Source: a virus (taxonomy: Duplodnaviria > Caudoviricetes). From it: DNA of 58,760 bases. Each line of letters opens with the position of its first letter. The stretch's first letter is position 1. The translations under genes and the position numbers were made by a program. Location: the IMG/VR virus record IMGVR_UViG_3300025127_000039, positions 1 to 58,760 of that record; one strand, written 5' to 3'. The notes beneath the pieces were generated by a model. It ran no database searches and had not been told where the DNA came from. It saw nothing but the letters and a program-made list of their open reading frames with translations. Shown here in pieces: positions 930 to 50,115 of this stretch.

Positions 930-947
930 AAATATTTACATATTTTT

Positions 948-976
948 AAAGGGGTCTTTTCAGACCCCTTTTTTTT
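948..976 (+). terminator. Rho-independent terminator after the capsid gene
   Basis: AAAGGGGTCT-tttc-AGACCCCTTT hairpin followed by a T run. Confidence 0.9.
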
Positions 977-1040
977 GTGTATAGTTAAAGTACCTTGACG
1001 AAGAATTAACTTCGACAACAGCCAAGACAAGGAGATATAC

Positions 1041-5767: not shown

Positions 5768-5776
5768 GAGTAGAAA

Positions 5777-10445: not shown

Positions 10446-10454
10446 GAGTAATGG

Positions 10455-10928
10455 ATGACTTTAACTAAAGTACAAGCCGAGGGAATAAATTTAGCAGATA
10501 CCTTTGCTTTTAGTGGAACTGTAAGTGGTGCAGGGTTAGCCTCTCCTTTTCCTACTAATACTGCAAGCACTTCAGAGGGTGGTGCGAATACAACTAATAT
10601 TTGTCAAGGCTTGGCAAAGGCTTGGGTTAATTTTAATGGTGCAGCATCTACTGTTAGCACTAATGATTCTTTTAATGTCGGCAGTATTACTGATAATGGT
10701 ACTGGAAAATACACAGTTAATATTAGTACTGCTATGGGCAATACTAATTATGCAGTTGCAGCACAAACTGAAGATGGTGGTGGATATAATGACCCTCGTA
10801 TAATCAATCACGAAGATAGTCAATCACGTAGCACTACGGCATACGGATTATATCATTGGCACATTAATAACGGAGTCTTAGATGATGCTACGAAATTAAA
10901 TGTAATAGTACACGGAGATTTAGCGTAA
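10455..10928 (+). CDS. 'GDLA' family fibre module, paralog 3
   Basis: QGLAKAWVNF...DSFNVGSITDNGTGKY...HGDLA*. Confidence 0.7.
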   Translation: MTLTKVQAEGINLADTFAFSGTVSGAGLASPFPTNTASTSEGGANTTNICQGLAKAWVNFNGAASTVSTNDSFNVGSITDNGTGKYTVNISTAMGNTNYAVAAQTEDGGGYNDPRIINHEDSQSRSTTAYGLYHWHINNGVLDDATKLNVIVHGDLA

Positions 10929-11386
10929 TGCCATATATAGGACGTTCAGAAAATTTTGGTGTAAGAAGTAGGTTTCAGTATCAAGCCACGGCTGGACAAA
11001 CCAGCTTCAGTGGATCAGATGCCAACTCACTATCACTAAGTTACAACGATACCTTGTATATGGATGTATATCAAAACGGAATATTGTTAGTGCCTGGCGA
11101 TGATTACACGGCAACAACTGGCACAACTGTTGTATTAGTCCAAGCAGCGAGTTTAAACGACATTGTAGAAATGGTCGTGTATGATACTTTTTCTGTAGCA
11201 GATAGTTATACAAAATCAGAGTCAGATACGAGGTATCCTTTCAAGGGCAATAATAGTATTATCAGATTAAACGGACAGACAATCAGTGCAGACATTACAA
11301 TAGATAGTGATGAGAATGGTGTAAGTGCAGGTCCTATAACACAGTCAGCAACAGTCACTGTTAATGGCTACTGGAGTATCGTATGA
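10928..11386 (+). CDS. Tail fibre-associated protein
   Basis: 152 aa, DVYQNGILL motif; paralog of 7687-8136. Confidence 0.6.
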   Translation: MPYIGRSENFGVRSRFQYQATAGQTSFSGSDANSLSLSYNDTLYMDVYQNGILLVPGDDYTATTGTTVVLVQAASLNDIVEMVVYDTFSVADSYTKSESDTRYPFKGNNSIIRLNGQTISADITIDSDENGVSAGPITQSATVTVNGYWSIV

Positions 11387-11820
11387 CAAGTCAATTAAAT
11401 GTAGATACTATTGTAGATAAAGCAGGTAGTGGTGGCACTAATGTTAAGATAGCAAATACATCTGTTACTGTAGCTGAAGGTGGTAGTGGCACACAGAACA
11501 CTGTGCAAGGATTGGCAAAAGGTTGGTTGCATTACGATCAAAGAACACCAACTGTTAGAGATAGTTTTAATATTACAAGTGTTGAAGATACTGCAAATGG
11601 TCACTACAAGGCAACAATTACTAATGCAATGGACAATATATATTATACTTTAGCTCACAGTGGTTCTTATGATGCTGATATTACAAATTCTAGCAGAGCA
11701 GATATTCATTTTGGGTTTCCAGAAACGACAACCCTTTATCAAAACGGTAGTATGAATACTGGCAACTCATATATTGATGATACATATTCCTTGAGTGTTG
11801 TACACGGAGACTTAGCATAA
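11383..11820 (+). CDS. 'GDLA' family fibre module, paralog 4
   Basis: QGLAKGW...DSFNITSVED...HGDLA*. Confidence 0.7.
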   Translation: MTSQLNVDTIVDKAGSGGTNVKIANTSVTVAEGGSGTQNTVQGLAKGWLHYDQRTPTVRDSFNITSVEDTANGHYKATITNAMDNIYYTLAHSGSYDADITNSSRADIHFGFPETTTLYQNGSMNTGNSYIDDTYSLSVVHGDLA

Positions 11821-12212
11821 TGGCTAGTGAACTTAAAGTAGATAAATTTACAGGTGTAACGACAGCAGGTTCTATTGATGTTACAGGTGAAGGCAATAGT
11901 ACAACAACTAATCTTCAGCAAGGATTAGCAAAAGCTTGGCTTTTTGGAAGTAGCTCGGCTGTTTTACAAGATTCTTTTAATATAAGCACTCCAACTGACC
12001 ACGGAACTGGTGATTATAGCTATACTCTAACTAATCCTTTCAGTAATGATGACTACTCTTTAACTGCTACAGCAAATAGTACAGACCAACGCAGAAATGC
12101 TACTGAAAATGGTGCAAGGTCATTAGCTGGTACTTTAGCTATAGAAACTTCTGATGCAGGAACTATGGATAATACTGCTCACAACATTACGGCACATGGG
12201 GACTTGGCATAA
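11820..12212 (+). CDS. 'GDLA' family fibre module, paralog 5
   Basis: QGLAKAW...DSFNIST...GTGDY...HGDLA*. Confidence 0.7.
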   Translation: MASELKVDKFTGVTTAGSIDVTGEGNSTTTNLQQGLAKAWLFGSSSAVLQDSFNISTPTDHGTGDYSYTLTNPFSNDDYSLTATANSTDQRRNATENGARSLAGTLAIETSDAGTMDNTAHNITAHGDLA

Positions 12213-12592
12213 TGGCTAGTATATTAAGAGTAAACACATTAACAGATGCAAGTAGTAACAATAGTATTGCTACGAGTTTTATAGCAAATGGTAGTGCGAA
12301 GGCTTGGGTGGAGGCAAAAACTGTTACTAGTCATGCTATTCAAGGTAGTCTGAACGTATCTTCACTAACAGATGGTGGTACTGGTGCTTTTGATGCAGTA
12401 ACATTTACTTCAGCAATGGCTAATGATGACTATGCAGTTGCAACATCTTGTGGACTTGAATCAAACGATGATGGTTTTATTAGGCGTTATGTACAGACCA
12501 CATCGGCAACAGGTGGCAGAGTAAGAACACACAATGGAAATCTTAACGATGCTAACCTTAATAGTTTCGTTATACACGGAGACCTCGCATGA
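12212..12592 (+). CDS. 'GDLA' family fibre module, paralog 6
   Basis: GSAKAW...SLNVSSLTDGGTG...HGDLA*. Confidence 0.7.
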   Translation: MASILRVNTLTDASSNNSIATSFIANGSAKAWVEAKTVTSHAIQGSLNVSSLTDGGTGAFDAVTFTSAMANDDYAVATSCGLESNDDGFIRRYVQTTSATGGRVRTHNGNLNDANLNSFVIHGDLA

Positions 12593-31981: not shown

Positions 31982-34159
31982 ATGGTAATGAACATTATTA
32001 AATTTGGCAACAGTAAACGCAGTATGGATTCTAAGGAATTAGTTGAATTAATAAGTCAAAAAGTTCCATCACAAGTTCAAATTGATTTATTGAGAGAAAC
32101 GTATCCACAAGGTGTCATAAGAGGGGATCAATTTACTATAGGTTCGCTTGGTGGTGAGGCAGGCAAGTCTTTAAAAATAGACATAAATCCTAGATCACCA
32201 TACTTTATGAAAGGACAAGATTTTAATGGTGCAGACGGAGTAGGTGGCATAGTTAAGATATTGATGGAAGGTAGAAATATGAAGTTACCGGAGGTTAAAG
32301 AGTTGTTCGCCTCATATCTTGATGAAGGCACGCCACAACCAGTTGAATCAATTAGTTCTATTATTAAACCGGAATCAAAACAAATAAACATAAACACGCC
32401 TTATGATAGCGAACATAAATATTTGAACGCTCAAGGTGAGTTACTTTGCTTAGTACGCAGATACAATGATATAGATGAACACGGAAATCCTATATTAGAC
32501 TCACATGGCAAACCAAAAAAAGAATTTAGACAGTTTGCTGGAGGCAGTAATTATCCACGTATGCCTGATGTTCGTCCATTATACAATATACCAAATATTA
32601 TAGCTTCAGAAAAAATTATATGGGTTGAGGGGGAAAAATGTGCAGATGCACTTAATGAACTTGGTTATACTGCAACTTGCACAATGGGTGGTGCCGGTAT
32701 GCTTTCAAGAAAGTCTGCAAACTTATTTGACTTTTCTCCGTTGCATGACAAAGAATTAATCATATGGCCAGATAATGATACTGCTGGTCGCAAAGTTGCA
32801 GAGCTAGTACAAGAACTTGCTCTTAACGCCAGTGTTAAATCAGTTACTACATTAACGCCACCAAGAGGTAAGCCTGAAAGATGGGATGTGGTAGATGCTA
32901 TTGCAGAGCAATTTAACATAAATGAATTTCTCAACACTAACATCAAGCAAATAAAAAAGAACATTAATCTTCTTGATGACAGTTTGTTAATTAACAGATT
33001 TGTTGGAGAGGCACCGGAGCAAAAGTTTTTGATAGCTAACACATTACCTTTAGCAGTGCCTATTATATTTTCTGCCGCAGGTGACAGTGGTAAAGGTATG
33101 ATGACATTGGACTTAGCAATGAAAGTATCAAGTGGTCAATCAATGCAAGAATCTTTTGGTGGCATGATTAGTGAGTTTGGCAATTCAATTATATTTACTG
33201 CCGAAGATGATGAAGCAGAGATGCACAGAAGAATTGATAGACTTGATTTTGAAAACAATAGGCAAAGTTTTGAGCATGAGTTACGAATCGTTAGTTTGCC
33301 TAATGTTGGTGGTGTCTTTCCTATACTGCAAGAAACACATGATGGTTACAGAACAAGCGATGAATTTGATAAAATATATGAACAAATACTGCAAATGAAG
33401 AACTTAAAACTTATAGTATTTGATCCTTTGGCTTCATTTGTACACGCAGATGTAAACTCTGATCCTGCGGCGGGTGCGGCTTTAACTGGTTTGTTAGCAC
33501 AAATAGCTACTGAAACCGGTGCCTCAGTCATAATGTGTCATCATATGACTAAAGTTAAAGAAGATTTAGTTGTAAGCACACCGGAACAAGCAAGAAATAT
33601 GATTAGAGGCACGTCTGCATTAGTTGATGGTGTTCGTTGTGCGTTTGCATTATGGCAAGTTGACGAAGCAACTGGGCGTAGAAGATGTCAAGATTTAGGC
33701 ATAGAATATAAAAGAAACAAATGCTTTGATGGTGCAGTCGTTAAATCTAATGGGCCAGCTAACAGAAACATAAGGCACTTTATTAGAGATGAATATAGTG
33801 GATTACTTGTGGATAAAAGCGAAGATATATCAAGATTACATACCGGCTCAAATAAAGAAATCAAAAAGACTGCGTTGTTTAATTGGATTGCAGATTGTGA
33901 AAGAGAGGGCAGAGCTATGACACAACAGTCCGGTGCAGATGCTATTTTGCAAAGAATGTCTGCTGATACTGATGCACCAAGGGTTTTAAACAACTGCACA
34001 CAAAGAATGATTGATGGTCTTGTTAGAGAGTTAATACAAGAGGGCAGACTGGCTAAGTATTCCTTTAGTACAAGTGGTGGCAGAAAGTGGCTTGGCACCA
34101 TTGATGGCGATATGAGTAGAGGTGAATACGAGGCAACCACTGCAAGAGATAATGTATAA
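31982..34159 (+). CDS. TOPRIM primase fused to an AAA_25/RepA-like helicase
   Basis: VEGEKCADA and WPDND TOPRIM motifs; AAGDSGKG Walker A variant; AEDD, FDPL, HHMTK, RGTSA motifs. Confidence 0.85.
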   Translation: MVMNIIKFGNSKRSMDSKELVELISQKVPSQVQIDLLRETYPQGVIRGDQFTIGSLGGEAGKSLKIDINPRSPYFMKGQDFNGADGVGGIVKILMEGRNMKLPEVKELFASYLDEGTPQPVESISSIIKPESKQININTPYDSEHKYLNAQGELLCLVRRYNDIDEHGNPILDSHGKPKKEFRQFAGGSNYPRMPDVRPLYNIPNIIASEKIIWVEGEKCADALNELGYTATCTMGGAGMLSRKSANLFDFSPLHDKELIIWPDNDTAGRKVAELVQELALNASVKSVTTLTPPRGKPERWDVVDAIAEQFNINEFLNTNIKQIKKNINLLDDSLLINRFVGEAPEQKFLIANTLPLAVPIIFSAAGDSGKGMMTLDLAMKVSSGQSMQESFGGMISEFGNSIIFTAEDDEAEMHRRIDRLDFENNRQSFEHELRIVSLPNVGGVFPILQETHDGYRTSDEFDKIYEQILQMKNLKLIVFDPLASFVHADVNSDPAAGAALTGLLAQIATETGASVIMCHHMTKVKEDLVVSTPEQARNMIRGTSALVDGVRCAFALWQVDEATGRRRCQDLGIEYKRNKCFDGAVVKSNGPANRNIRHFIRDEYSGLLVDKSEDISRLHTGSNKEIKKTALFNWIADCEREGRAMTQQSGADAILQRMSADTDAPRVLNNCTQRMIDGLVRELIQEGRLAKYSFSTSGGRKWLGTIDGDMSRGEYEATTARDNV

Positions 34160-35996
34160 AATAGTAGATTTATTTAGTGGCATAGGAGGATTTAGCTATG
34201 CTGCCGAACAAATAGTAGGTGGCTTTGAAACAATAGCTTTCGTTGAAAGAGACGAATATTGTCAAAAAGTCTTGCGTAAACATTGGCACGATGTACCAAT
34301 ATATAGTGATATAAGGAGTTTTGATGGTAAAGAATACAAAGACGCAGATATCGTTGTTGGAGGATTCCCATGTCAACCCTGGTCGGTTGCAGGAGCTCAA
34401 AAGGGAAGCGAAGATGACAGAGATCTCTGGCACGAAATGGTTAGGATTATTGAAGACATACGGCCACGATGGATCATTGGCGAGAATGTGTCAGGCTTTG
34501 TTACAATGCCAATGGGTCTCAGAAGAAGTCTCATTGACTTGGAAAGTATCGGATACAAAGCCATCCCATATCTTATTCCAGCTGCAGCCGTCGACGCCAA
34601 GCATAGACGAATGCGATGCTGGATTGTGGGCCACACCGAACACGATGGATCATCTGCCACCCCGTTCAGAGGAAGGAACAATGAAGCTGATGGAGGGTCA
34701 ACGCAAGGGACGAACAAAACCGGCGAACTTGAGGGAGCAAGTGGACAACAAGACAATGGATATATACAAACAGACATCTTCGACTTTGTGGCCGACACCA
34801 ACGACACAGGAGATAGAGCACCCGCAAGCGGAGTTGACAACGAACAACAGAAGGTTGAGCAAGGACGGGAAGAGCAGCCACAGTCTGAACTTAGCAGACA
34901 CAGTAAAGATGTGGCCAACGCCAACAACAATGGACACGAAGGAAGATGCGTTGAAACACGCAACCAAACTTTTACAGGGCAAAACACACAGAGCAAGTGG
35001 AGAGCCGATACAGAAGTCATTAGTGGACAAAGTAATGATGGAAGAGATAAAGAAAAATCCGGAATTGATGAAGATTTACGAAGATCACGAAATGGTTTTT
35101 CGTCCAAACTTACCACCACAACAGGAGTTTGTGGCTTATCTCAGAGAACAAACAACAATCAAGGAGTTGTCAGAGAAAACGGATATAAAGAAAACAACAA
35201 TAGAACATTGGTTTCGCAAGGATCAAAAGGGATTCAGTCATCCAAGCATAGAGGATTGGGAGAAGATAAAACCACATCTGAATCAAATCAAGTACGATCA
35301 ACAGATGACCACTATAAAAACAAAAGAATGGAAAAAAACAAATCAAATGTGGAGAACGCCAACGGCAGCGAATGCGACACAGGGGCCGAAGAGCGAACAA
35401 CTTTACCACAAAGTGAAGAAAGACGGCTCAAGTGCAATAACATTAGTGGACGAAGTGAAGATGTTCCCAACACCAAGGGCAAGGGATTGGAAAGACGGAT
35501 ACAGAGTACCACCATCAGTACAGAACGGAACGAGAGCACACACTCTGGGAACATTTATAGCAGAGAAAGAGATAATGTGGCCGACACCGACAACAAAGGG
35601 GTACGGACACGCATCAATGGGTCAAACAATGATCTTCAGAAAAAAAGTGGAAGCCGGGGAAATGACCGAACAACAAGCAGAGCAGATGTTGGGTTGCACA
35701 CTAAGACCACCAAGAATGGAGAAATGGGATTATCCCAAAAAGGAGATGTTCCCTACGCCATCGGCAAACGAAGATGCAGCGGGACGACCAGGGGGGAAGA
35801 TGCAAAAGATGTTAGGCAACCATCCTTCCGTGAGAGACCAGTCCTCTGGAACCCTGAACCCAACGTGGGTAGAGTGGCTAATGGGGTACCCAATAGGGTA
35901 CACAGACTTAGATGTTTAGGGAATAGTATCGTGCCACAGGTCGTTGCAAGAATATTTTATGCTATTAAGGAGGCAGATAAAAATGAAAAAATATGA
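34152..35996 (+). CDS. C5 DNA cytosine methyltransferase, alpha (catalytic) polypeptide
   Basis: Motifs I (DLFSGIGG), IV (GFPCQ), VI (ENV), VIII (HRRMRCWIV) and X (RLRCLGNSIVPQ); about 400 low-complexity codons in place of the TRD. Confidence 0.9.
   Translation: MYKIVDLFSGIGGFSYAAEQIVGGFETIAFVERDEYCQKVLRKHWHDVPIYSDIRSFDGKEYKDADIVVGGFPCQPWSVAGAQKGSEDDRDLWHEMVRIIEDIRPRWIIGENVSGFVTMPMGLRRSLIDLESIGYKAIPYLIPAAAVDAKHRRMRCWIVGHTEHDGSSATPFRGRNNEADGGSTQGTNKTGELEGASGQQDNGYIQTDIFDFVADTNDTGDRAPASGVDNEQQKVEQGREEQPQSELSRHSKDVANANNNGHEGRCVETRNQTFTGQNTQSKWRADTEVISGQSNDGRDKEKSGIDEDLRRSRNGFSSKLTTTTGVCGLSQRTNNNQGVVRENGYKENNNRTLVSQGSKGIQSSKHRGLGEDKTTSESNQVRSTDDHYKNKRMEKNKSNVENANGSECDTGAEERTTLPQSEERRLKCNNISGRSEDVPNTKGKGLERRIQSTTISTERNESTHSGNIYSRERDNVADTDNKGVRTRINGSNNDLQKKSGSRGNDRTTSRADVGLHTKTTKNGEMGLSQKGDVPYAIGKRRCSGTTRGEDAKDVRQPSFRERPVLWNPEPNVGRVANGVPNRVHRLRCLGNSIVPQVVARIFYAIKEADKNEKI
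34324..35919 (+). CDS. Nested +1-frame protein, predicted C5-MTase beta subunit (tandem TRD-like modules plus motif IX)
   Basis: AAGGAG SD at 34313-34318; about 531 aa open; seven W/F-x-T-P repeats; C-terminal LNPTWVEWLMGYPIGYT. Confidence 0.8.
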   Translation: MVKNTKTQISLLEDSHVNPGRLQELKREAKMTEISGTKWLGLLKTYGHDGSLARMCQALLQCQWVSEEVSLTWKVSDTKPSHILFQLQPSTPSIDECDAGLWATPNTMDHLPPRSEEGTMKLMEGQRKGRTKPANLREQVDNKTMDIYKQTSSTLWPTPTTQEIEHPQAELTTNNRRLSKDGKSSHSLNLADTVKMWPTPTTMDTKEDALKHATKLLQGKTHRASGEPIQKSLVDKVMMEEIKKNPELMKIYEDHEMVFRPNLPPQQEFVAYLREQTTIKELSEKTDIKKTTIEHWFRKDQKGFSHPSIEDWEKIKPHLNQIKYDQQMTTIKTKEWKKTNQMWRTPTAANATQGPKSEQLYHKVKKDGSSAITLVDEVKMFPTPRARDWKDGYRVPPSVQNGTRAHTLGTFIAEKEIMWPTPTTKGYGHASMGQTMIFRKKVEAGEMTEQQAEQMLGCTLRPPRMEKWDYPKKEMFPTPSANEDAAGRPGGKMQKMLGNHPSVRDQSSGTLNPTWVEWLMGYPIGYTDLDV

Positions 35997-38259: not shown

Positions 38260-38585
38260 TGTTAGTTATAATAGAATCACCCTATATGGGTAATGTTAAA
38301 AGTAATGTCGCATATGCACGCAAGTGTATGAGCGACTCCCTACTGCGAGGCGAATCCCCATTTGCCTCGCATCTTCTTTACACACAAATTTTAGATGACA
38401 ATAAAGATATAGAACGTCTTACCGGAATGTCTAGGGCATTTAATTGGTATCGCCACGCAGATCTAATGGCAGTTTACACAGACAAAGGTATATCAAATGG
38501 CATGAAAATGGGCATGGAAGTAGCAGAGAAGCTCGGAATAGAAATGGTTTATAGGACATTAAATGGAAATAATAATAGAGGGTAG
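38259..38585 (+). CDS. DUF4406 / nucleoside-deoxyribosyltransferase-like fold protein
   Basis: VIIESPY.G...PFASHLLYTQ.LDD...GIS.GM pattern. Confidence 0.6.
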   Translation: MLVIIESPYMGNVKSNVAYARKCMSDSLLRGESPFASHLLYTQILDDNKDIERLTGMSRAFNWYRHADLMAVYTDKGISNGMKMGMEVAEKLGIEMVYRTLNGNNNRG

Positions 38586-39867
38586 TACAGTTTATAATGG
38601 CGACTGTTTAGAAGTCATGGAGAAAATACATAAGTGTTCGGTGGACAGTGTGGTAACCGATCCGCCGTATCACCTTACATCTATTGTTCAGAGGTTCGGA
38701 AAAGAAGGTTCGGCACCAGCACAGTTCGGTACAGACGGAGCGTTTGCTAGGGCATCAAAAGGTTTCATGGGCAAAGAGTGGGATGGAGGTGATATAGCTT
38801 TCCAAGCGAACACTTGGCGTAAATGTTATGAGTTGCTGAAGCCTGGAGGTCATTTGATAGCGTTTAGCGGATCACGAACATACCACAGAATGGCTTGTGC
38901 CATAGAAGATGCCGGATTTGAAATTAGAGATCAATGTATTTGGTTGTATGGTAGTGGGTTTCCTAAAAGCCATAATATCGGCAGAGAGATAGATAAGAAA
39001 CAAGGCAATGATAGAGAGGTCGTTGGAGAGGTAAGGGCAGGCAAAAACGCATTAGGCCAAGATAGTGGTTGGAACAAACACAACAATAGAACTGAAATAG
39101 AAGTTACTAAAGGCAACTCAGAATGGGAGGGTTGGGGTACTGCGTTGAAACCTGCACATGAACCAATGGTGTTAGCAAGAAAGCCTTTGTCGGAGAAGTC
39201 GGTAGCAGACAACGTGATGCAGCACGGAACTGGAGCCATAAACATTGACGCTTGTCGTGTTGGTGGTCAGTCAGAAGATACAGAGCGTAAAAAAGTTGTT
39301 CGCAAAGCTCGGACAGCAGATGGCGTGTGGACTGATGATAATAGTGGCATGAAGTCGGAGGGTTCGGAGTTTGCAGATGCAGACCCAAGAGGGCGTTGGC
39401 CGAGCAATGTGATGCACGATGGCAGCGAACAAGTGCAAGAAATATTCCCGGAAACTAGCAGCACGGAGGTCAGCAGAGAGCGAACACACAAGGGGATTTG
39501 GACTGCCGGTGAACTGGCAGATACCGAACAATTCATGCCAGCATATGGCGACCAGGGCAATGCGTCTAGGTATTTTTATTGTGCAAAGACATCAAAAGAA
39601 GAGCGTAAATTTGGACTGGGTGGTGAGGTTGCAGCGAACACTCACCCAACAGTTAAACCAGTTGAGCTAATGAGATACCTTGTTCGCTTGATAACGCCAA
39701 AGGAAGGTGTGGTTCTCGATCCATTTATGGGAAGTGGATCAACTGGAATGGCAGCTAGAGAGGAGGATTTTAGCTTCATTGGAATAGAAAAAGAAAGCGA
39801 ATATTATGAAATTGCCAAAGCAAGAATTAAAAATGTTAAGCCACAGTTAAAATTATTTGACTTTTAG
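38563..39867 (+). CDS. DNA N6-adenine/N4-cytosine methyltransferase, beta class
   Basis: GDCLE, TDPPY, HPTVKP, LDPFMGSGST, GIE motifs in beta order. Confidence 0.92.
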   Translation: MEIIIEGSTVYNGDCLEVMEKIHKCSVDSVVTDPPYHLTSIVQRFGKEGSAPAQFGTDGAFARASKGFMGKEWDGGDIAFQANTWRKCYELLKPGGHLIAFSGSRTYHRMACAIEDAGFEIRDQCIWLYGSGFPKSHNIGREIDKKQGNDREVVGEVRAGKNALGQDSGWNKHNNRTEIEVTKGNSEWEGWGTALKPAHEPMVLARKPLSEKSVADNVMQHGTGAINIDACRVGGQSEDTERKKVVRKARTADGVWTDDNSGMKSEGSEFADADPRGRWPSNVMHDGSEQVQEIFPETSSTEVSRERTHKGIWTAGELADTEQFMPAYGDQGNASRYFYCAKTSKEERKFGLGGEVAANTHPTVKPVELMRYLVRLITPKEGVVLDPFMGSGSTGMAAREEDFSFIGIEKESEYYEIAKARIKNVKPQLKLFDF

Positions 39868-40396: not shown

Positions 40397-40590
40397 TGAT
40401 TGCTATTCCCAATAATTGGATAGATGCGTCATTTGATGACGTATCTATCTATCATACTAAAGATTTAGCCATATATTTTAATAAATATGATTATGAGGTT
40501 CATAACATCAACATTAACAAGAGTAAATTTTCATTGTTGCTCAAGGCTAATGATTTTAGTGAAGTAATTAATTTTGTTAATGAAAGGTAG
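40396..40590 (+). CDS. Hypothetical protein
   Basis: 64 aa, coupled TAATG. Confidence 0.5.
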   Translation: MIAIPNNWIDASFDDVSIYHTKDLAIYFNKYDYEVHNININKSKFSLLLKANDFSEVINFVNER

Positions 40591-40594
40591 AGTA

Positions 40595-41047
40595 ATGTTA
40601 TATGGTGCATATGGTGCAAATTTAAATAAAGAAAGCATGAAGATACGTTGTCCTGACGCAAAGCCTATGATTAGTTTCCATTTAAAAGGTTATAGGCTTG
40701 TCTTTAATAGTGTTGCAGACATTGTTAAAGACCCAAAGGGTACTGTTCCTATTGTGCTTTGGAAGATCACAAAGAAGTGTGAAAAGGCTTTGGATAGGTT
40801 TGAGGGTTATCCTTTCCTATACAATAAGATAAGAGTGCAATCAGATATTCCGGGAGCCAAAGGTAAAATAATGCTCTATGTGATGCGTAGGAAAGGTATT
40901 GCCATACCACCTACTTCTTACTTTAAGACCATAGAAGAGGGTTATGATGACTTTGGTTTAGATAAAACATATCTGTATAGTGCCAAAGCAAAGGCTTCAG
41001 AATATCAAGAACTTAATTTAAATCTAGCAAGAAAGGTAGGTTCATAA
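40595..41047 (+). CDS. Gamma-glutamylcyclotransferase (AIG2-like) family protein
   Basis: YGAYGANLN...RCP...LDRFEGYP.LY...P...Y motifs. Confidence 0.85.
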   Translation: MLYGAYGANLNKESMKIRCPDAKPMISFHLKGYRLVFNSVADIVKDPKGTVPIVLWKITKKCEKALDRFEGYPFLYNKIRVQSDIPGAKGKIMLYVMRRKGIAIPPTSYFKTIEEGYDDFGLDKTYLYSAKAKASEYQELNLNLARKVGS

Positions 41048-42364: not shown

Positions 42365-42891
42365 TGCCAAAAGTAGGAGAAGATTTATCAAGAGAGCAAA
42401 GGCTTGCTGGTCAGAAAAGATTGACTGATAAACAACAGGCTTTCCTTGATAACTTTATGCACAAGGATATGACGCAGACTGCAGCAGCAAGAAAGGCTGG
42501 ATATGCGAACCCTGGTGTTGATGCTGTTCGCTTGTTGCGTAACCCGGTGGTGCAAGAGCGATACCAGGAGATGCAAGAAGAAGCTCGGTCAAGGTTCGGT
42601 GTAACAATTGAAAAGTCGCTGCGTGATCTGTTAAAGATCCGTGAATTAGCCATAGATAGGGAGAAATATGGCGATGCAATCCGTGCTGAAGAACTCAGAT
42701 TAAAAGCAACTGGACTGCTAGTCAATAAGGCTCATGTGCTACATGAACAAGTTGACAGTCTAACAAGAGAACAAATAGTAGAAAAACTACAAGAATTTCA
42801 AGAACTTGCACAGAAACGCATGAAAGTAGCCACAAAGACCCAAGACGACCCACTTACGATAGAGCATGATAACATAAATACCCAAAAATAA
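42364..42891 (+). CDS. terS: Terminase small subunit
   Basis: LTDKQQAF...TQTAAARKAGY...RLLRNPVV HTH plus helical oligomerisation region. Confidence 0.8.
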   Translation: MPKVGEDLSREQRLAGQKRLTDKQQAFLDNFMHKDMTQTAAARKAGYANPGVDAVRLLRNPVVQERYQEMQEEARSRFGVTIEKSLRDLLKIRELAIDREKYGDAIRAEELRLKATGLLVNKAHVLHEQVDSLTREQIVEKLQEFQELAQKRMKVATKTQDDPLTIEHDNINTQK

Positions 42892-42904
42892 CGCATACAC
42901 TTGG

Positions 42905-43282
42905 TGTGTTCGGTCATGCGTGGAGGATCGGACTTTCCAGTCGGACTTTCGGACTCGGACTTGTTCGGTGTCGGAGGTTGTCGGACTGGCTTCTGCCGTG
43001 CCTTCTGCTGCATTGTTCGCTCTGCGTGCAGCTGCCGGATCAAGCTGTTGAAGCGAATGATTGTTCGGTGTCGGACTGGACGCAAGCTGCTAAACGAATT
43101 ATTGTTCGTTCTGACGTGCTCGGCGTCGAGCACCTTGAACAATTGTTCGGTCTAGGAGGCTCAGCAGCGGGAAGCTGCTACGCATTAGCTACGGCGGTCA
43201 GCACGCTGCAGAAGACTAGCGAACTATTGTTCGCTCCGGCACCAGGCCGCAAGCAGCTCGCTGCTGCGAACATTGGCAGCTT
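42905..43282. repeat. GC-rich repeat array A
   Basis: TCGGAC cluster 42928-42986; (C)GAAYNATTGTTCG at 43054, 43095, 43136, 43220; partial TTGTTCG at 42961, 43013. Confidence 0.85.
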
Positions 43283-43302
43283 GAAAAAAAATTATTTAGA
43301 GG

Positions 43303-43332
43303 TTGACAAGTAGGCATTGAATACCATATAAT
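43303..43332 (+). promoter_or_regulatory. Consensus sigma70 promoter with UP element and operator
   Basis: TTGACA-18-TATAAT, upstream A-tract; TAGG cattgaata CCAT. Confidence 0.8.
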
Positions 43333-43363
43333 ATATATGCAAACGAAACAAAAGGGGGTCATT

Positions 43364-43702
43364 ATGACACAACAAAATAAAAAATATGTTGTTCCTGGTC
43401 AAGGCGACATGGAAAGCATTAAAGAACTCATGAATAAACTAGACGCACATAATGGCGAGTGCGATTACTGTCTTGAAGAAATTAATCAGTATCCTTTAGA
43501 GGTTAAGAAAACTCAAGGCTATGAACTTCTTTTGGGGACTGGGGGTCCGGCAACAAGGATTGTTGGTCAGATCAATGAGTATGGCGAGCCAGTGACGGCA
43601 GAACTGCAAGGGCAAGACTGGGGAACCCAATGGGAAAGAACAGAGGGACAAGATGAAAAAACTCTGTTGCAATTTGCTCAACACTTTTACTTTGGGGGTT
43701 AA
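43364..43702 (+). CDS. Early hypothetical protein
   Basis: AAAGGGGG SD before ATG 43364; acidic; LLGTGGPA motif. Confidence 0.7.
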   Translation: MTQQNKKYVVPGQGDMESIKELMNKLDAHNGECDYCLEEINQYPLEVKKTQGYELLLGTGGPATRIVGQINEYGEPVTAELQGQDWGTQWERTEGQDEKTLLQFAQHFYFGG

Positions 43703-43703
43703 G

Positions 43704-43784
43704 ATGTTCGGAATGTTTATCGTTAACGCACTAGCAGCGATCACCTTGTTCGGTTTTTTCTTCTATCTGCTTCTCATCACCTAG
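43704..43784 (+). CDS. 26-aa single-helix hydrophobic peptide (not in ORF track)
   Basis: MFGMFIVNALAAITLFGFFFYLLLIT; GGGGG SD; starts 1 nt after the upstream stop and precedes a terminator. Confidence 0.55.
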   Translation: MFGMFIVNALAAITLFGFFFYLLLIT

Positions 43785-43789
43785 ATAAT

Positions 43790-44250
43790 TTCGGACATTG
43801 TTCGGAGTTCGGACCCAGATCCTTCACCGGTCTGGGTCTTTTTGTTCGTGCCTCTGCTGCCGTCCGGGTGATAACGAATGATTGTTCGCTGCCTTCTGCT
43901 GCACCGGTGTGCTCGGAGCGAATGATTGTTCGCTCTTCAGCTTGTCCCGGCGGCCGCAAGCTGATCGTTTTGCTGCCGGATCTGTCACCGCACGAACTAT
44001 TGTTCGCTCACGCTTCCCGGCCCGTTCTACACCGCCTAAAAAAAAAGTCCCAGAATTCTGGGATTGTTCGCCCTTCAGTAGCAGCGCAGCTGACACCCTA
44101 GCTGCAACGCTAGACCGGCGTGAAGCACAAGCGAACTATTGTTCGGTATGATCGGACATCGGACTCGGACTGTCGGACTTCGGACATCCGGACATCTGCA
44201 GCACCAGGTTGCAGCTTGCAGCTTTTTCCGGTTTTTTGAGCGAACAATCT
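43790..44250. repeat. GC-rich repeat array B
   Basis: CGAAYNATTGTTCG at 43875, 43919, 43993, 44132; partial copies at 43798, 43842, 44064; CGGAC cluster at 44152-44193. Confidence 0.85.
43812..43843 (+). terminator. Rho-independent terminator
   Basis: GACCCAGATC-cttcacc-GGTCTGGGTC-TTTTT. Confidence 0.75.
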
Positions 44251-44373
44251 AATATTCGTTTGATTTATTCGTTTAAATTAATTTCATAAATAGGTATTCA
44301 ATGCTTGAGATGTTCGCTTAAAAATGTTAACATTGATTCGCACAAACATTAATCATTACGAAAGGACTTTATT

Positions 44374-45486
44374 ATGATTGATATAGCAATAGGATTTGAA
44401 AGAGAAGTTGACTCCTTATCTGTAAGAGATGGAATCAATATCTTTGCAAATCATCCAACTTTAAACTTTATAAAAGTTAAACACGATGCGAGTCTTCCAA
44501 ATGGTTGTGAGATTATCTTTCCACCTTTGAGTAGTAAAGCAGAATCTACTTGGCAATATTCAAGTCAAGTTAATGATTTGATTATTGCAAATGGTGGAAG
44601 AATAACTCGTCAATGTGGTCATCATGTTCATTTTGGATTGAAACCAATAACAATGAATTGTGAGGATTTTAACAGACAATCAATTCAATTGTTTAAAGAT
44701 AGAAACCAATACTTCCAAGACTCAAATGATATGTTTCAATTTGAAGTTATCAAAGACGTTGTTTATAGATATGCACAATATCAAGACTTCATATCAAGTT
44801 TCTTAGCACCTAGTCGCAGAAACTCAAGATATGCAAGTCCTATAAATGGTTTCTTAAATAGAATAGAAGATTCTAGAGATATGACTCAATTAAAGAATTG
44901 TATTAATGGAAAGTTTTATTCTGTTAACTTATCTAATATTGATATTAGAAATCAAAAAGGAACGATTGAGTTTAGACAACATCAAGGAACAGTAAACAAT
45001 ACTAAGTTAAAAAATTGGATTATGTTTCTTGTTAATATGTTTGATTATACAATCAATCATAGAATCCAAGTTGTAAGACAAGGCGAAAAGTTTATTGATA
45101 ACTTACAAAATACAATGCCAAGAAATACCAAACTCCATCAAGTTTTTGAGATGTTACAAACAGATAATGGTGCGACTACTCGTGAGATTATGGACTCTGT
45201 TGGTATTAATGATGCAAGATCTGTAAGAAGAACCATTAACACTATAAGACGTAAACTAGGCGATTGTAGTTTGGTTATTTGTTTGACTCAAGAATACTAT
45301 GGTCATTTAAATGGTACGTCTAATGGTCTTTACGACTTGAATGGATACAAGATTCCAAAGCAAGTTGAGAGAGAATCTCAAGGCGAAGTTATCATTGATA
45401 ACAATGCAGATTCCCATGTGTTTAGTAACTTAGCAGAGTCATTAAAGACATGGTTTAACAACAGAATATCAAGTCTAGGTAACTAG
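44374..45486 (+). CDS. Putative amidoligase (COOH-NH2 ligase type 2) with C-terminal HTH-like domain
   Basis: GFERE, HDASL, CEIIFPPL, CGHHVH, SRR...YA, KFYSVN, GTIEFRQHQGT motifs; AAAGGA SD. Confidence 0.85.
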   Translation: MIDIAIGFEREVDSLSVRDGINIFANHPTLNFIKVKHDASLPNGCEIIFPPLSSKAESTWQYSSQVNDLIIANGGRITRQCGHHVHFGLKPITMNCEDFNRQSIQLFKDRNQYFQDSNDMFQFEVIKDVVYRYAQYQDFISSFLAPSRRNSRYASPINGFLNRIEDSRDMTQLKNCINGKFYSVNLSNIDIRNQKGTIEFRQHQGTVNNTKLKNWIMFLVNMFDYTINHRIQVVRQGEKFIDNLQNTMPRNTKLHQVFEMLQTDNGATTREIMDSVGINDARSVRRTINTIRRKLGDCSLVICLTQEYYGHLNGTSNGLYDLNGYKIPKQVERESQGEVIIDNNADSHVFSNLAESLKTWFNNRISSLGN

Positions 45487-46633: not shown

Positions 46634-48649
46634 ATGGCAAATGGACCTTTAGGTGGTTTTATGCCGACACCGGCAGCACCTGCACAGCCACCATCTATAA
46701 AATTAGACACCACAGCAAGTAGTAGAGGCACATTTAACAACTTTTTAAAATCAATGAATGGTGCAACATCGCTTAATCCTCCGAGTATGGCACCTATGGT
46801 GGGTGCCAACCCTATGATGGCACCCGCTGCTAACATAGATATATTTAACGAGCCAGTTGCAATGATGCAAAATGGTGGAGACCCAATGGATGCTTCTTTT
46901 AGTGATTTTGCTGGTTTTAGTGATCCTTCTGATCCTTTTGGCGGTGGTGATACATCAATAGATGATGTAGGTTCAGAGGAAGATCCAACACCAAGCATAG
47001 GTTTGACTTCAGAAATGATACAAGCTGGCACTCGTGATGATCCTTTGAATGTATTTGCAGATGATCCAAGTTCTGCCACGCCAATGGGTTTAACAATGCC
47101 ATCTGGACAAAATTTTAGTACACAAGCAGCCACAGGCACAAACCTAAATTTTGATCAAAATACTCTAAACGAAATTAAAGCACAAATTAACAATAGGAAT
47201 GAGGTTGCTTTAACTGAAGAAGATAATTTTTTCAACAAAGATGGTTCACTAAAACCAAGTGGTATCGCTGAATTAAACAAAAGAAACGCAGAAGATTTGC
47301 AACAAGTCATGGCAGGTAATGTTCCGGCTTCAACATACATATCTGCGGATAGTGCAAGTGATATTCTAGGTGACGCTGATATATTAGATTTAGGTAAAAA
47401 AACAGATCAGATTGATCCATTTGCCATACAACCAACTTTTCAAAACTTTGGATTACCAGGCGTGAGTGGTCTTCCGACTGTTAAGTCAACAAGAAGCACA
47501 GTTGCACAAGATCAAGCAAGAGCTATAGCCAATTTAGTTGGTGATAGAGCACCGACAATAGAAGAGCAATTGCAACAAAACGTATTAGCAGATAGAGGTA
47601 GGGCGTTAGGACCTACAACTTTTAGTGATGATTTAGCAAATTTTCAAGAGAGAGTAACTCTCTCTCCGCCGCCAGATGATTATGAAGAGCAAGTTGGAAC
47701 TATGGGTGCAAGAATTGGTGGGGGAATGTTTCCTAAAATGTACGCTCCAGGTCAATCTGAAATTCAATACACTACAAAAGGCACCACACCTCAAGAGCAA
47801 AGAGAATTAAGAGAACTTAGAGACATAGATGAGGCTATTGAGGTTGCAGAAAGAGGTCCTTTAACTTTTCAAACACAAACTCAAAAATCAACTGCACCAG
47901 AGGATTTTGAGGAAAACGTAGGTTTGCCGTTTAGTGATAGGCGTATGAGAGACATTGAAAGATTATACAATGTTCCTCAAGGCCAAAGAAGAACTGGCGA
48001 GGGTGATGATCCGAACATATTGTCTGGCATACCATCTGCGTTAAATATATTTGAAAGAATACCAAGAGAGCAAATGGCAATAGATGTTGCTTTAGGTAGA
48101 CCGAGATCTTTTACTGAAATGATTAGAGGATTTACTGCCACACCAGCTAGAAACATGGATGAATTTACAGGCAGATTGCAAAGAGATACCATTGGTCCAG
48201 AGGGCGATACTACTGGTTTTACATCTAAAACCATACCAGAAAGTCAATTGATAAGAAACAACAGAGGCAGGATAACGGCTATAACTGATGCTTCTGGCAG
48301 AACAATTACTGGCGTAAATCCAGATGAAGAGATTTTTGGTAGTGATGATAATCAACTTCCTATAATTAAAAGACCTATAGCACCGGTTGTTGAGGAGAAA
48401 AAAGATGATGACAAGCCACCCAACGTAATAGGTGGCGGTGCTCCACGTCCAGTTACAGAACCTGTGCCAACTGTGGTTGCTAGTCCTTTTGCACCATCTA
48501 GTGCAAACATAAGTCCAGTAACATTTGACACTGGTGAATTAAATAAATTGATAGAGTTACTAACTGGCGTATCGGCAAAGCCAGTTGTTGCCAAACAAGA
48601 AGGTGGGTTAGTAAGTGCAGTTGATGAGTTTCTAGCCTCCGGTTCATGA
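46634..48649 (+). CDS. Large acidic, low-complexity protein (probable internal head protein)
   Basis: 671 aa, P/D/E-rich, MQNGG and KQEGG motifs, directly upstream of TerL. Confidence 0.65.
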   Translation: MANGPLGGFMPTPAAPAQPPSIKLDTTASSRGTFNNFLKSMNGATSLNPPSMAPMVGANPMMAPAANIDIFNEPVAMMQNGGDPMDASFSDFAGFSDPSDPFGGGDTSIDDVGSEEDPTPSIGLTSEMIQAGTRDDPLNVFADDPSSATPMGLTMPSGQNFSTQAATGTNLNFDQNTLNEIKAQINNRNEVALTEEDNFFNKDGSLKPSGIAELNKRNAEDLQQVMAGNVPASTYISADSASDILGDADILDLGKKTDQIDPFAIQPTFQNFGLPGVSGLPTVKSTRSTVAQDQARAIANLVGDRAPTIEEQLQQNVLADRGRALGPTTFSDDLANFQERVTLSPPPDDYEEQVGTMGARIGGGMFPKMYAPGQSEIQYTTKGTTPQEQRELRELRDIDEAIEVAERGPLTFQTQTQKSTAPEDFEENVGLPFSDRRMRDIERLYNVPQGQRRTGEGDDPNILSGIPSALNIFERIPREQMAIDVALGRPRSFTEMIRGFTATPARNMDEFTGRLQRDTIGPEGDTTGFTSKTIPESQLIRNNRGRITAITDASGRTITGVNPDEEIFGSDDNQLPIIKRPIAPVVEEKKDDDKPPNVIGGGAPRPVTEPVPTVVASPFAPSSANISPVTFDTGELNKLIELLTGVSAKPVVAKQEGGLVSAVDEFLASGS

Positions 48650-50115
48650 ACCTTGAATACACAGAATATTTAAGTGATGAGGAGTTATCTAAGATAGCAC
48701 CAATGCTTGAGCGTTTAAATATGCTTGAGAAACAAAAAGTATCACAAGATTTATACATGGATTTTGTTAAGCGTATATGGCCTTCGTTCATTGAGGGTAG
48801 GCACCACAAGATATACGCAGATAAATTACAACAAGTAGCAGATGGCAAGATCAAGCGTTTGATAGTGAATATGCCACCTAGACACACAAAGTCAGAGTTT
48901 GCCAGTTATTTATTTCCATCTTGGCTTATGGGCAGACGACCAGATTTAAAGATAATACAAGCAACGCACACGGCAGAGCTAGCTGTTGGTTTTGGTCGTA
49001 AGGTTAAAAACCTTATTGATAGTGATGATTTCCGTGATGTATTTCCAGATGTAAAATTAGCTGCCGATGCCAAGGCATCTGGTAGATGGTCAACGAACAA
49101 AGGTGGCGAATACTACGCTGTTGGTGTGGGTGGTGCGTTAGCTGGTCGTGGTGCAGACTTATTGATTATTGATGACCCAGTATCAGAACAAGATGCGTTA
49201 AGTCCTACTGCACTTGACAGTATTTATGAATGGTACACATCTGGACCAAGACAAAGATTGCAACCTGGTGGCTCAATCATTATAGTGATGACACGTTGGG
49301 GGATTAAAGATCTCACAGCAAGAGTGTTACAAAAGCAAGCTCAAGGAGGTGCAGATAAATGGGAAGTAGTAGAGTTTCCGGCAATATTTCCAGAGACTGG
49401 AAACGTACTTTGGCCAGAATATTGGAGCAAAGACGAGCTAGAAGGCGTGAAAGCCTCAATACCCGTAGGCAAATGGAACGCACAGTATATGCAAAATCCG
49501 ACTGCGGAAGAGGGAGCGATAATAAAAAGGGAGTGGTGGAATATTTGGAATCCTGATAACCCACCTACCTGCTCGTATATCATACAATCATACGACACAG
49601 CGTTTACAAAAAATGAGCGTTCTGATTTTAGTGCTATTACTACTTGGGGTATTTTTACTCCAGTTGAGGGAGAAGGAGATGCCATCATCTTGCTTGATGC
49701 CGAGAAAGGCAGATGGGATTTCCCAGAACTTAAACAAAAAGCAATGGAACTGTCAGAAGCATATGATCCTGACATGATATTGATTGAGCAAAAGGCAAGT
49801 GGTACGCCACTTACACAAGAGTTAAGACGCATGGGTGTGCCGGTTACTCCTTTTACGCCAAGTAAAGGTGCAGATAAATTTGCAAGAATGAACGCTTGTG
49901 CACCAGTCTTTGAGAGTGGCATGGTCTGGAGACCAGACGCTAATTTTGCAGAAGAAGTTGTAGAGGAATGTGCTAGTTTTCCACATGGCGATCATGATGA
50001 CTTGGCAGATTCGATGACACAGGCTATACTAAGATTCAGACAAGGTGGTTTTATAACTGCACCAGACGATGAAGAGTTTGAGCCAATCTACAGAAGAAAG
50101 ATGGAGTATTACTGA
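48646..50115 (+). CDS. terL: Terminase large subunit
   Basis: MPPRHTKS Walker A variant, IIDDP Walker B, MTRW, QYMQNP, SYDTA, HDDLADS nuclease motifs. Confidence 0.95.
   Translation: MNLEYTEYLSDEELSKIAPMLERLNMLEKQKVSQDLYMDFVKRIWPSFIEGRHHKIYADKLQQVADGKIKRLIVNMPPRHTKSEFASYLFPSWLMGRRPDLKIIQATHTAELAVGFGRKVKNLIDSDDFRDVFPDVKLAADAKASGRWSTNKGGEYYAVGVGGALAGRGADLLIIDDPVSEQDALSPTALDSIYEWYTSGPRQRLQPGGSIIIVMTRWGIKDLTARVLQKQAQGGADKWEVVEFPAIFPETGNVLWPEYWSKDELEGVKASIPVGKWNAQYMQNPTAEEGAIIKREWWNIWNPDNPPTCSYIIQSYDTAFTKNERSDFSAITTWGIFTPVEGEGDAIILLDAEKGRWDFPELKQKAMELSEAYDPDMILIEQKASGTPLTQELRRMGVPVTPFTPSKGADKFARMNACAPVFESGMVWRPDANFAEEVVEECASFPHGDHDDLADSMTQAILRFRQGGFITAPDDEEFEPIYRRKMEYY

Follow-up and report, generated by a model that had tools for sequence, protein, structure and literature searches.

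Phased palindrome arrays next to the small terminase gene of an uncultured marine phage flank a variable gene cassette and may act as operator-like sites

We analyzed the DNA of an uncultured, podovirus-like marine phage, the complete IMG/VR virus record IMGVR_UViG_3300025127_000039 (positions 1 to 58,760; this whole 58,760-bp stretch is called the window), with a focus on the locus between terS, the small terminase gene, and an amidoligase gene. The locus contains two GC-rich, noncoding arrays of a palindrome (arrays A and B), which bracket a cassette made of a promoter, a small gene, and a terminator. It forms the control region where the replication/modification module, with terS at its end, meets the amidoligase-p78-XRE-p671 operon, which precedes terL. 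The palindrome is conserved in relatives, its copies are helically phased and linked to promoters and terminators, and the cassettes between them turn over. Our preferred reading, which we hold tentatively and rate somewhat below an even chance, is that the palindromes are operator-like sites for a phage helix-turn-helix (HTH) protein that would control or insulate early or accessory cassettes.

The arrays begin right after the end of terS at position 42891, with a start 14 nt past the gene. An original prediction, made from the letters of the window, had described GC-rich noncoding twin blocks at this place, and the GC content agrees with it: 0.557 in block A (42905-43290) and 0.543 in block B (43785-44250), compared to 0.379 in the window and 0.407 between the blocks. 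No intergenic gaps of the genome are larger than the two in which the blocks lie (445 and 588 bp, with a GC content of 0.53 and 0.48 over the whole gaps); the remaining gaps are at most 188 bp long, and most of them have a GC content of about 0.3. The word ATTGTTCG is present 14 times in the window, and 12 of these copies fall within 43012-44248, 11 on the plus strand; 100 shuffles contained 1.12 ± 1.04 copies (maximum, 4). All seven exact copies of CGAAYNATTGTTCG lie within the locus on the plus strand. Together with a copy at 43136 that has one mismatch, they make up eight near-full sites, all in plus orientation, and both their number and their spacings (41, 41, and 84 nt in A; 44, 74, and 139 nt in B) are as predicted. 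In the window, palindrome sites are confined to the terS-amidoligase locus. A second motif, TCGGAC, has 13 of its 14 window copies within 42928-44185, all on the plus strand (shuffles, 4.78 ± 2.18). As the prediction also had it, these copies form two outer clusters, which share their orientation and lie at the left extreme of A and the right extreme of B. The spacers TGCCTTCTGCTGCA, GCTGCCGGATC, and GGCCGCAAGC (repeat families D9, D15, and D4) were correctly listed as common to both blocks, and both hairpins named in the prediction were found. The layout is most simply read as one long array flanked by clusters, with cassettes inserted into the array.

Several lines of evidence show that the arrays are noncoding. 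Long open frames over the arrays are not retained even in relatives with 100% identical TerS, the arrays of relatives differ by a 26-nt deletion and by gains of whole units, and 1-nt indels distinguish the contigs of other strains at 43051, 43084, and 43936. The strain comparison is based on assembled (Logan) contigs, the form in which all 20 public runs found are available. The TCGGAC copy number is strain variable: at 42948, contigs of runs X3 and X16 have insertions of 6 and 12 nt, and 6- or 12-nt steps occur in the TCGGAC cluster of the nearest relatives (L008-L010; loci of relatives carry L numbers). An Rfam scan of 42500-44600 (E up to 1) detected no RNA family. The array RNA folds better than shuffles (z of -3.4 and -5.3); these scores were given no weight as evidence for a structured RNA, since repeated palindromes yield such scores by themselves. 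A CRISPR array was also rejected: the conserved core is 14-22 bp rather than at least 23 nt long, and the spacers, 20 to 125 nt in length, are common to both blocks.

Relatives were collected by a terS search of IMG/VR, which partly used a peptide from the TerS HTH and yielded 67 loci with 67-100% identity. Their gene order is conserved: terS, a variable interval of 1.26-4.2 kb, amidoligase, p78, XRE, p671, and terL. At least two plus-strand copies of TTGTTCG follow terS in all 54 loci that have at least 600 nt of sequence there, and at least three copies in 46 of the 54. On the plus strand, 411 copies were counted in 44 distinct terS-amidoligase intervals (108.6 kb), versus 149 copies in 272 kb outside; on the minus strand, the intervals contain 164 copies, of which 79 are part of perfect palindromes. 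A logo of 373 distinct instances is symmetric, A.A.CGAAyaA/TTGTTCG.T.T (the slash marks the center), and extends over about 22 bp. For this logo and for the distance classes given below, distinct sequences or clusters were counted, which removes shared descent only partly. The palindrome A.A.CGAACAA/TTGTTCG.T.T is of the type that a dimeric HTH protein would read.

When close relatives were aligned, the sites were invariant, whereas the spacers and the number of units drifted. The high GC content of the spacers is kept in all relatives. Word statistics in the relatives revealed just two motif classes, the palindrome and a TCGG-type unit. The latter has the form TCGGAC in the close clade, (G)ATCGGGC(T) in the clade with 67-74% identity (L039-L064), and TCGGGC or TCGGAT between them; ATCGGGCT was also found in other clades. 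In a group of relatives (L053, positions 4338-5730; also L042, L043, L045, L047, L052, L055, L057, and L062), seven plus-strand AAATTGTTCGG half-sites lie within two open reading frames (ORFs) upstream of terS. They fall in different reading frames and are thus kept at the DNA level. The window has no such half-site pattern upstream of terS. The locus is also a hot spot of assembly breaks: at least 9 of the 67 related contigs, several of which are 20-37 kb long, end 104-868 nt past terS, five more end within terS, and several contigs of the 67-74% clade start no more than 150 nt before terS.

The distances between neighboring sites pile up near 41, 52, 64, 75, 85, and 95 nt. To avoid inflation by kinship, 254 distinct spacers were collapsed to 135 clusters at 70% identity. 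In these 135 spacer clusters, the periodicity persisted: a period of 10.5 bp gave an R of 0.375, and a period of 11 bp an R of 0.41 (Rayleigh p, ~1e-8 to 1e-10). Despite the drift of the spacer sequence, the sites thus stay on a single helix face. Their phasing is our strongest argument that a protein complex would assemble on the arrays. Protein assembly had been proposed in the original prediction, and the conservation of sites versus spacers, the helical phasing, and the presence in 54 of 54 loci support it.

The palindrome copies share this helix face also with the sigma-70 promoters downstream of them. The -35 box of the window's cassette promoter lies 69 nt downstream of the end of the last array A site. 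In the locus of the relatives, 59 of 74 distinct near-consensus promoters (score of at least 10/12) have a site within 150 nt upstream, and the distances between site and -35 box fall into the classes 45-48, 54-58, 64-70, and 75-79 nt; the 69 nt of the window belong to the 64-70 class. Relatives of the 67-74% clade have several small genes in the interval, besides a small site cluster right after terS. At many of their junctions, a common junction module recurs, in which a terminator hairpin with its T-run is followed after about 10 nt by a perfect CGAACAATTGTTCG, a short GC-rich hairpin, an A-tract, and a TTGACA-17-TATATT promoter. The more distant relatives contain 60 distinct perfect-palindrome sites, and the junction module is present at many of them.

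Sites are also linked to the next operon. Among 38 distinct upstream regions of the amidoligase gene, each 120 nt long, 24 contain TGTTCG or CGAACA (0.7 expected). In L071, CGAACAA lies in the spacer of the amidoligase promoter, and in L034 and L044, a half-site is located just upstream of the -35 box. Moreover, nine relatives (L325, L331, L339, L344, L345, L358, L366, L390, and L401), the head protein of which is 90-96% identical to that of the window, carry a perfect CGAACAATTGTTCG between the stop codon of the head gene and a terminator hairpin. At the corresponding place, the window (927-1000) is without this palindrome and has an unrelated AT-rich word. A different palindrome, CGAAG-N6-CTTCG, overlaps a TTGACG word at 996-1016 of the window.

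The slot between the arrays is occupied by exchangeable genes. In the window, it contains a promoter, TTGACA-18-TATAAT (43303-43332), which reaches the full consensus score of 12/12 and is the sole such match in the genome, followed by a small ORF and a hairpin terminator. Thus, the self-contained expression cassette that had been predicted between the blocks is indeed present. The cassette ORF belongs to no Pfam or PHROG family, an Atlas search gave unnamed viral clusters only, and relatives of the gene were found in just two IMG/VR loci. Even in L009, with a 100% identical TerS, the slot holds a 107-amino acid (aa) gene of a different family, and clustering of the slot genes resulted in many small families. 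For the cassette gene of the window and 16 other cassette families, nothing was detected beyond DUF7222 and unnamed PHROGs. A hydrophobic peptide of 26-27 aa, similar to that at the 3' end of the window cassette, ends cassettes with unrelated first genes (5 loci). Contigs from the DNA of two other samples match the arrays and the cassette of the window unchanged (X2 over 43120-44415 and X3 over 43262-44292). Other-strain contigs depart from the window sequence at 43149 and at 43357, the latter just inside the cassette. Neither this variable slot content nor the tie to promoters and terminators, nor the LexA box match described below, was part of the original prediction.

Based on these observations, we infer protein binding, possible binders, and a direction of control as follows. 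On both flanks of the slot, in which a small exchangeable gene stands between a very strong promoter and a terminator, the arrays would be coated by a phage-encoded protein, which would also touch the promoter of the next operon. Once bound, this protein would shut off, time, or insulate these transcription units, which are probably early or accessory genes. We favor such a regulatory role because the sites recur at many junctions between terminators and promoters, are in phase with promoters, and occur as half-sites in the promoter of the adjacent operon. These three features are hard to reconcile with a pure packaging site or a pure replication origin. In a second role, the sites may be crossover points for the swapping of cassettes between phages, since each junction bears the same short sequence.

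Candidate binders are the XRE-family protein, the HTH of TerS, and the winged-helix tail of the amidoligase. The TerS HTH is nearly invariant in 42 distinct relatives and is still recognizable at 49-63% overall identity in loci found by the DNA motif alone. In a profile comparison of XRE, the nearest solved relatives were Aca2, Aca1, and the 434 and P22 repressors, with weak matches (E, 3e-5 to 2e-2); all 67 XRE relatives found are of the same clade. The amidoligase tail is moderately conserved; its match to DUF3489 (E, 4.5e-5) is below the family cut-off, and the tail is kept in the alignment of relatives. HTVC027P and 023Pt_psg01, which are without the motif, are also without a detectable XRE, amidoligase, or TerS of this type. 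The idea that the TCGG-type units covary with the recognition helix of XRE was discarded, as L029-L036 keep the helix SERGYRCYE yet carry TCGGGC-type units.

A number of observations weigh against operator-like sites. A simple repressor would usually sit over its promoter, but the full sites lie 45-80 nt upstream of the -35 box, and arrays of 6-8 sites are far above the need of an ordinary operator. All array sites have a single orientation, which a symmetric dimer does not need. Instead of selection for phase, common descent from a small number of duplicated modules may account for part of the distance classes. Contigs from RNA libraries cover parts of arrays A and B, but they are assembled contigs and thus weak RNA evidence, not proof of transcription. 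TerS, XRE, and the amidoligase all accompany the motif in every relative found, so that no binder is singled out. The recognition helix of XRE depends on the clade (SERGYRCYE versus SLRTWCHYE) despite the same motif, and TerS is less changed than XRE across clades, which favors packaging. Finally, the analogy to HTVC027P described below is one of position: this phage lacks the palindrome, and apart from TerL, its proteins have no detectable homology with those of the window locus.

Packaging is the first function to be weighed against regulation. According to this explanation, oligomers of TerS would occupy the phased sites on either side of the slot and bend the DNA into a loop, and the first headful cut of TerL would fall close by. 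Models for this are the pac sites of SPP1 (pacL/pacR) and P1, terminase recognition regions with two flanking blocks of binding sites (in P1, hexamer sets on both sides). The window locus is similar in that a nucleoprotein complex would be expected to assemble on multiple short sites, grouped in two blocks by the terminase genes, and it differs in that the blocks are 350-450 bp long, lie 0.5-3 kb apart, and enclose variable genes, and in that the site recurs elsewhere in relatives. The original prediction had listed TerS/pac sites among the possible functions, alongside T5-like injection-stop signals. The adjacency to terS holds in 54 of 54 checkable loci. The pac claim is weakened by further copies of the same perfect palindrome in relatives, where it is not limited to a single locus per genome: at cassette junctions it recurs in a similar arrangement with terminators and promoters, and in nine relatives it follows the head-gene stop, where a pac site would be senseless. 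The near-constant HTH in 42 TerS sequences (kept at 49-63% identity) is in line with packaging, yet part of the set was gathered via the HTH peptide itself, which inflates its conservation. Similarly, the contig ends past terS could mark packaging starts, but they are scattered, as repeats or strain variation would cause. The phased, multisite, two-block arrangement and the Aaphi23-like phages among the weaker TerL matches, which we take to be headful packagers, are further points for pac, while ring-shaped TerS is expected to read direct repeats and not palindromes. Altogether, we consider a pac site unlikely but worth keeping in view. A replication origin is distinctly less probable than that in our judgment. 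Here, the phased sites would be iterons, read by an initiator of the phage such as the Toprim/RepA-like primase-helicase with its C-terminal part, and the AT-rich promoter region would melt, aided by transcription. Iteron loci such as P1 incC/incA, F, RK2 oriV, and P4 ori/crr consist of two blocks of phased repeats in the same orientation, which flank a gene in P1 and F. The same-orientation, helically phased repeats of the window, in two blocks by an A-tract and a very strong, AT-rich promoter region, resemble them. However, the enclosed gene is variable and not a conserved initiator gene as in P1 or F, each repeat is a palindrome, the replication genes are located about 9 kb away, and single sites at each cassette junction and after the head gene would be unexpected. 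Two adjacent perfect TTATCCACA words, presumably the DnaA-box consensus, lie by a T-rich stretch about 100-150 nt upstream of the amidoligase start in L039, L040, L046, L048, and L050; these belong to one subclade only, and the window locus is without DnaA-box words. The primase-helicase has about 160 C-terminal residues that match no assigned domain, which would suit an initiator. As a P4-alpha-like origin binder it was rejected, because only its RepA-like helicase core matched a solved structure. Both pac and origin are kept alive by the array size, the single orientation, the fixed place after terS, and the constancy of the TerS HTH.

It is also conceivable, though we strongly doubt it, that the repeats are pure recombination scaffolds, kept only as short homologies for cassette exchange, a role proposed for the T4-type PeSL motifs described below, and without a dedicated binder. 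Cassettes turn over between conserved flanks, other strains depart at 43149 and 43357, array units are gained and lost, and the phage encodes a Sak4-like annealing protein and a Cas4-like exonuclease. Homology alone, however, does not account for the 10.5-11 bp phasing, the symmetric 22-bp logo, and the promoter phase classes. Another explanation starts from the palindrome itself, which corresponds to the SOS box of the Gram-positive/actinobacterial type, CGAAC-N4-GTTCG. If the sites were boxes of the host LexA, the cassettes would be tied to the SOS response, or LexA would be soaked up by the arrays. We know of no LexA arrangement with arrays of 6-8 boxes. Four of the eight full window sites fit GAAC-N4-GTTC exactly, and the perfect form CGAACAATTGTTCG is identical to the core of the experimentally studied dnaE2 SOS box of Mycobacterium tuberculosis, as given in Table 1 of a LexA binding study cited here from excerpts (PMC8607333). 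Excerpts of an infection time course with HTVC027P furthermore report that SOS genes of the host go up (PMC12753301). The only cultured kin infect SAR11, and in five of five SAR11 genomes, lexA is preceded by GAAC-N7-GAAC, whereas CGAAC-N4-GTTCG is found in none of the five. A SAR11 host LexA was thus rejected as the binder, and if the host is SAR11, the binder would therefore be phage encoded; the window phage's own host may differ. In addition, the full boxes do not overlap promoters, their position relative to the promoter differs from that of LexA boxes, and in a scan of bacterial genomes for the exact palindrome, the matches listed are of mixed taxonomy, without a marine signal or a pointer to the host. 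Host LexA boxes are thus very improbable. The last alternative, contained in the original prediction, is that the arrays are methylation-sensing or restriction-decoy pads of GCWGC and CCGG sites, which are read via the C5-methyltransferase of the phage. The prediction had estimated the site numbers well: the two blocks contain 21 GCWGC (4.3 ± 2.0 in dinucleotide shuffles) and 11 CCGG (2.7 ± 1.5), and neither count was reached in any of 1,000 shuffles. The phage also has the enzymes, a 624-aa C5-methyltransferase and a 434-aa N6/N4-methyltransferase, and avoids many other short palindromes. Despite this real excess in the window, a conserved function of this kind has next to no probability. Only the three nearest relatives, L008-L010, share the excess, and GCWGC/CCGG is therefore not part of what is conserved. 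Many equally GC-rich arrays of other relatives have no GCWGC excess, and the arrays of most other relatives are free of CCGG (0 versus 2-7 expected).

Operator-like sites thus remain our preferred reading. The explanations are not mutually exclusive, since one nucleoprotein complex could serve transcription and, in addition, packaging or replication. Protein p6 of phi29 reportedly forms one complex with several such roles. A bolder view, rather improbable in our estimation, combines regulation and exchange: the locus would be a cassette platform of an abundant group of marine phages, a phased, protein-coated scaffold, in which each palindrome is both an operator or insulator restraining very strong early promoters and a crossover point for cassettes, possibly with counter-defense functions, that co-infecting phages exchange. 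Such a platform would be, in function, the phage counterpart of an integron, without an integrase. In a still bolder variant, the sites would be true LexA boxes of a host other than SAR11, coupling the cassettes to the SOS response or titrating LexA.

We compared the locus to known phage systems with similar features. Composite terminator/early-promoter motifs (PeSLs) in T4-like phages were reportedly described by Arbiol et al. in 2010. Like PeSLs, the sites of the window and its relatives are part of short conserved modules of terminator plus promoter between small variable ORFs in a plastic region. In the consulted parts of Comeau et al. 2014 (PMC4122927), PeSLs are such terminator/early-promoter modules, and they mark gene gain, loss, and replacement in plastic regions of T4-like phages. 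Unlike in PeSLs, a 22-bp palindrome is multiplied here into phased arrays of 6-8 sites with TCGG-type clusters at the outer ends, and there is one slot beside terS instead of many plastic regions; there is also no sequence likeness, and the window phage, by its gene content related to HTVC023P-type phages, is not a T4 relative. Anti-CRISPR operons controlled by Aca proteins are said to combine an HTH gene with operators that are inverted repeats. Gene sets for anti-defense that are guided by regulatory sequences are described for archaeal viruses in excerpts of another study (PMC11065993). The window locus resembles both: its small, rapidly changing genes stand behind very strong, putatively early promoters and near a conserved HTH gene, its inverted repeats would act as operators, and the driven genes vary more than the regulatory sequence does. 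It is unlike Aca operons because XRE lies in the next operon, the full sites are upstream of the promoters and not over them, and there are far more sites, which are phased; an anti-defense role of the cassettes is only possible. In T7, short-repeat arrays, SRL and SRR, lie beside the terminal repeat. Similar to these, clusters of a unit with a period of about 7 bp are found on the outer sides of a central segment, TCGGAC in the window and GCTTGNN in HTVC027P. In contrast to T7, a terminal repeat or genome end at the window locus would be hypothetical.

The nearest named phages by TerL are 023Pt_psg01 (60%), Pelagibacter phage HTVC027P (60%), and HTVC023P (56%). Judged by TerL, HTVC023P-type pelagiphages are thus the nearest cultured kin of the window; according to excerpts of a preprint, some members of this group may infect other bacteria (bioRxiv 10.1101/2019.12.14.876532). 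To the extent of a full-text search, the motif is unreported in phages: the 14-mer and its parts gave only LexA and unrelated papers, and the searched passages of the literature on HTVC023P-type phages contain no mention of such repeats. For HTVC027P, excerpts of the time course mentioned above (PMC12753301) assign gp35-gp39, with very high expression, to the early genes, all of which have no known function in this phage; terS (gp29), gp31, and terL (gp40) are late, and gp33/gp34 form a separate temporal class, with gp33 listed as middle in the supplementary expression table. HTVC027P has GC-rich GCTTGNN clusters with a 7-bp period between terS and terL (L077, positions 4942-6190), located around gp32-gp34 and upstream of gp35. 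One of them falls inside the annotated coding sequence of gp32, which may not be a gene. In 023Pt_psg01 (L078, positions 6356-6460), a GC-rich GCTCGCT/GCTTGCT cluster with a 7-bp period was also found between terS and terL. By position, array B and the amidoligase operon of the window are comparable to the repeat region and early genes of HTVC027P, an analogy of place only, which we count in favor of the regulatory reading.

The coordinates of the locus and its genomic surroundings are listed in Table 1.

Table 1. Features of the array locus and of the surrounding genome (positions in the window)
Feature	Position	Strand	Remarks
Head, tail, and ejection genes	18 to ~26,000	+	
Recombination/replication genes	to ~36,000	+	Resolvase, Sak4-like ATPase, helicase, Cas4-like exonuclease, Toprim/RepA-like primase-helicase, 624-aa C5 methyltransferase
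DNA/nucleotide modification block	After replication genes		N6/N4 methyltransferase, gamma-glutamyl cyclotransferase, Mom-like protein
terS, small terminase, 180 aa	42349-42891	+	Pfam Terminase_2 (E 5.5e-11), phrog_51; conserved left anchor of the locus
Post-terS word ACACTTGGTGTGTTCGG with TGTTCG half-site	42897-42913	+	Conserved immediately behind the terS stop codon in the close clade; more distant loci keep ACACTTG as well
Outer cluster 1, TCGGAC-type units	42926-42986	+	5 exact copies, 6-26 nt apart
Array A	42961-43233	+	Half-sites at 42961 and 43013
Array A, full sites	43054-43067, 43095-43108, 43136-43149, 43220-43233	+	One mismatch in 43136-43149
A-tract, then sigma-70 consensus promoter	43286-43332	+	-35 at 43303-43308, -10 at 43327-43332
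Cassette ORF	43337-43702	+	Likely start at 43364 behind AAAGGGGG, giving 112 aa
26-aa strongly hydrophobic ORF, MFGMFIVNALAAITLFGFFFYLLLIT	43704-43784	+	Just 5' of the terminator, at the cassette 3' end
Intrinsic terminator	43811-43848 (hairpin terminator, 43811-43839)	+	T-run runs into the TTGTTCG half-site at 43842
Array B	43791-44145	+	Half-sites at 43798, 43842, and 44064
Array B, full sites	43875-43888, 43919-43932, 43993-44006, 44132-44145	+	
Hairpin TCCCAGAATTCTGGGA	44048-44063		Within array B
Outer cluster 2, TCGGAC units	44150-44192	+	5 exact copies and CCGGAC, period of 6-8 nt
Amidoligase-operon control region	44238-44333	+	Inverted half-site GAGCGAACAATC at 44238-44249
Putative amidoligase promoter	TTGAGA at 44305		TTGAGA-17-TAACAT; TGTTCG at 44311-44316 inside the spacer
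Amidoligase with DUF3489-like winged-helix tail	44374-45486	+	Pfam Amidoligase_2 (E 6.3e-13); conserved right anchor; followed by small ORFs
XRE-family HTH protein, 135 aa	46185-46592	+	Pfam HTH_3; syntenic in relatives; candidate regulator; followed by the 671-aa protein
terL	48646-50115		Followed by SU10-type portal

All credible genes of the window are on the plus strand, and no tRNA genes were found in it. The DNA of the locus had no similarity match in 50,697 phage records. A host search via terS in 185,579 species genomes gave a single distant match (28% identity) in a Clostridia metagenome-assembled genome and no close relative. Outside 42905-44250, many short palindromes are strongly avoided in the window: GCGC is absent (52-68 expected), CGCG occurs twice in the whole window, TCGA is found 20 times (57-189 expected), and AACGTT, ATGCAT, CTTAAG, and ATCGAT have 0 copies each. 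GCWGC, CCGG, and GATC are not avoided there. This pattern fits heavy restriction pressure on a phage that shields some of the sites with methyltransferases of its own. In the C5 methyltransferase (34122-35996), the Pfam DNA_methylase match covers residues 12-285 only, and the PHROG match is full length; in the N6/N4 methyltransferase (38563-39867), residues 27-419 match a profile of just 221 positions. Large inserts, which may be additional target-recognition parts, thus seem to be present in both enzymes. In every clade, the gamma-glutamyl cyclotransferase (40574-41047) is retained along with the amidoligase, and in the 67-74% clade, the cyclotransferase gene is inside the variable interval, immediately upstream of the amidoligase gene. 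This suggests that the two proteins may be a functional pair. At 8738-12592, seven small paralogous ORFs (126-157 aa) stand in a row, each of which matches phrog_11355 "tail fiber protein".

The conserved cis-element marks a slot for early or accessory genes and is therefore a handle on fast-evolving small genes across hundreds of uncultured genomes. The small genes in this slot are candidates for host takeover or counter-defense. The arrays may also explain why metagenomic assemblies frequently break at this point. With a site of about 22 bp and three candidate binders, the locus is a clean test system for how a lytic marine phage times its strongest promoters.

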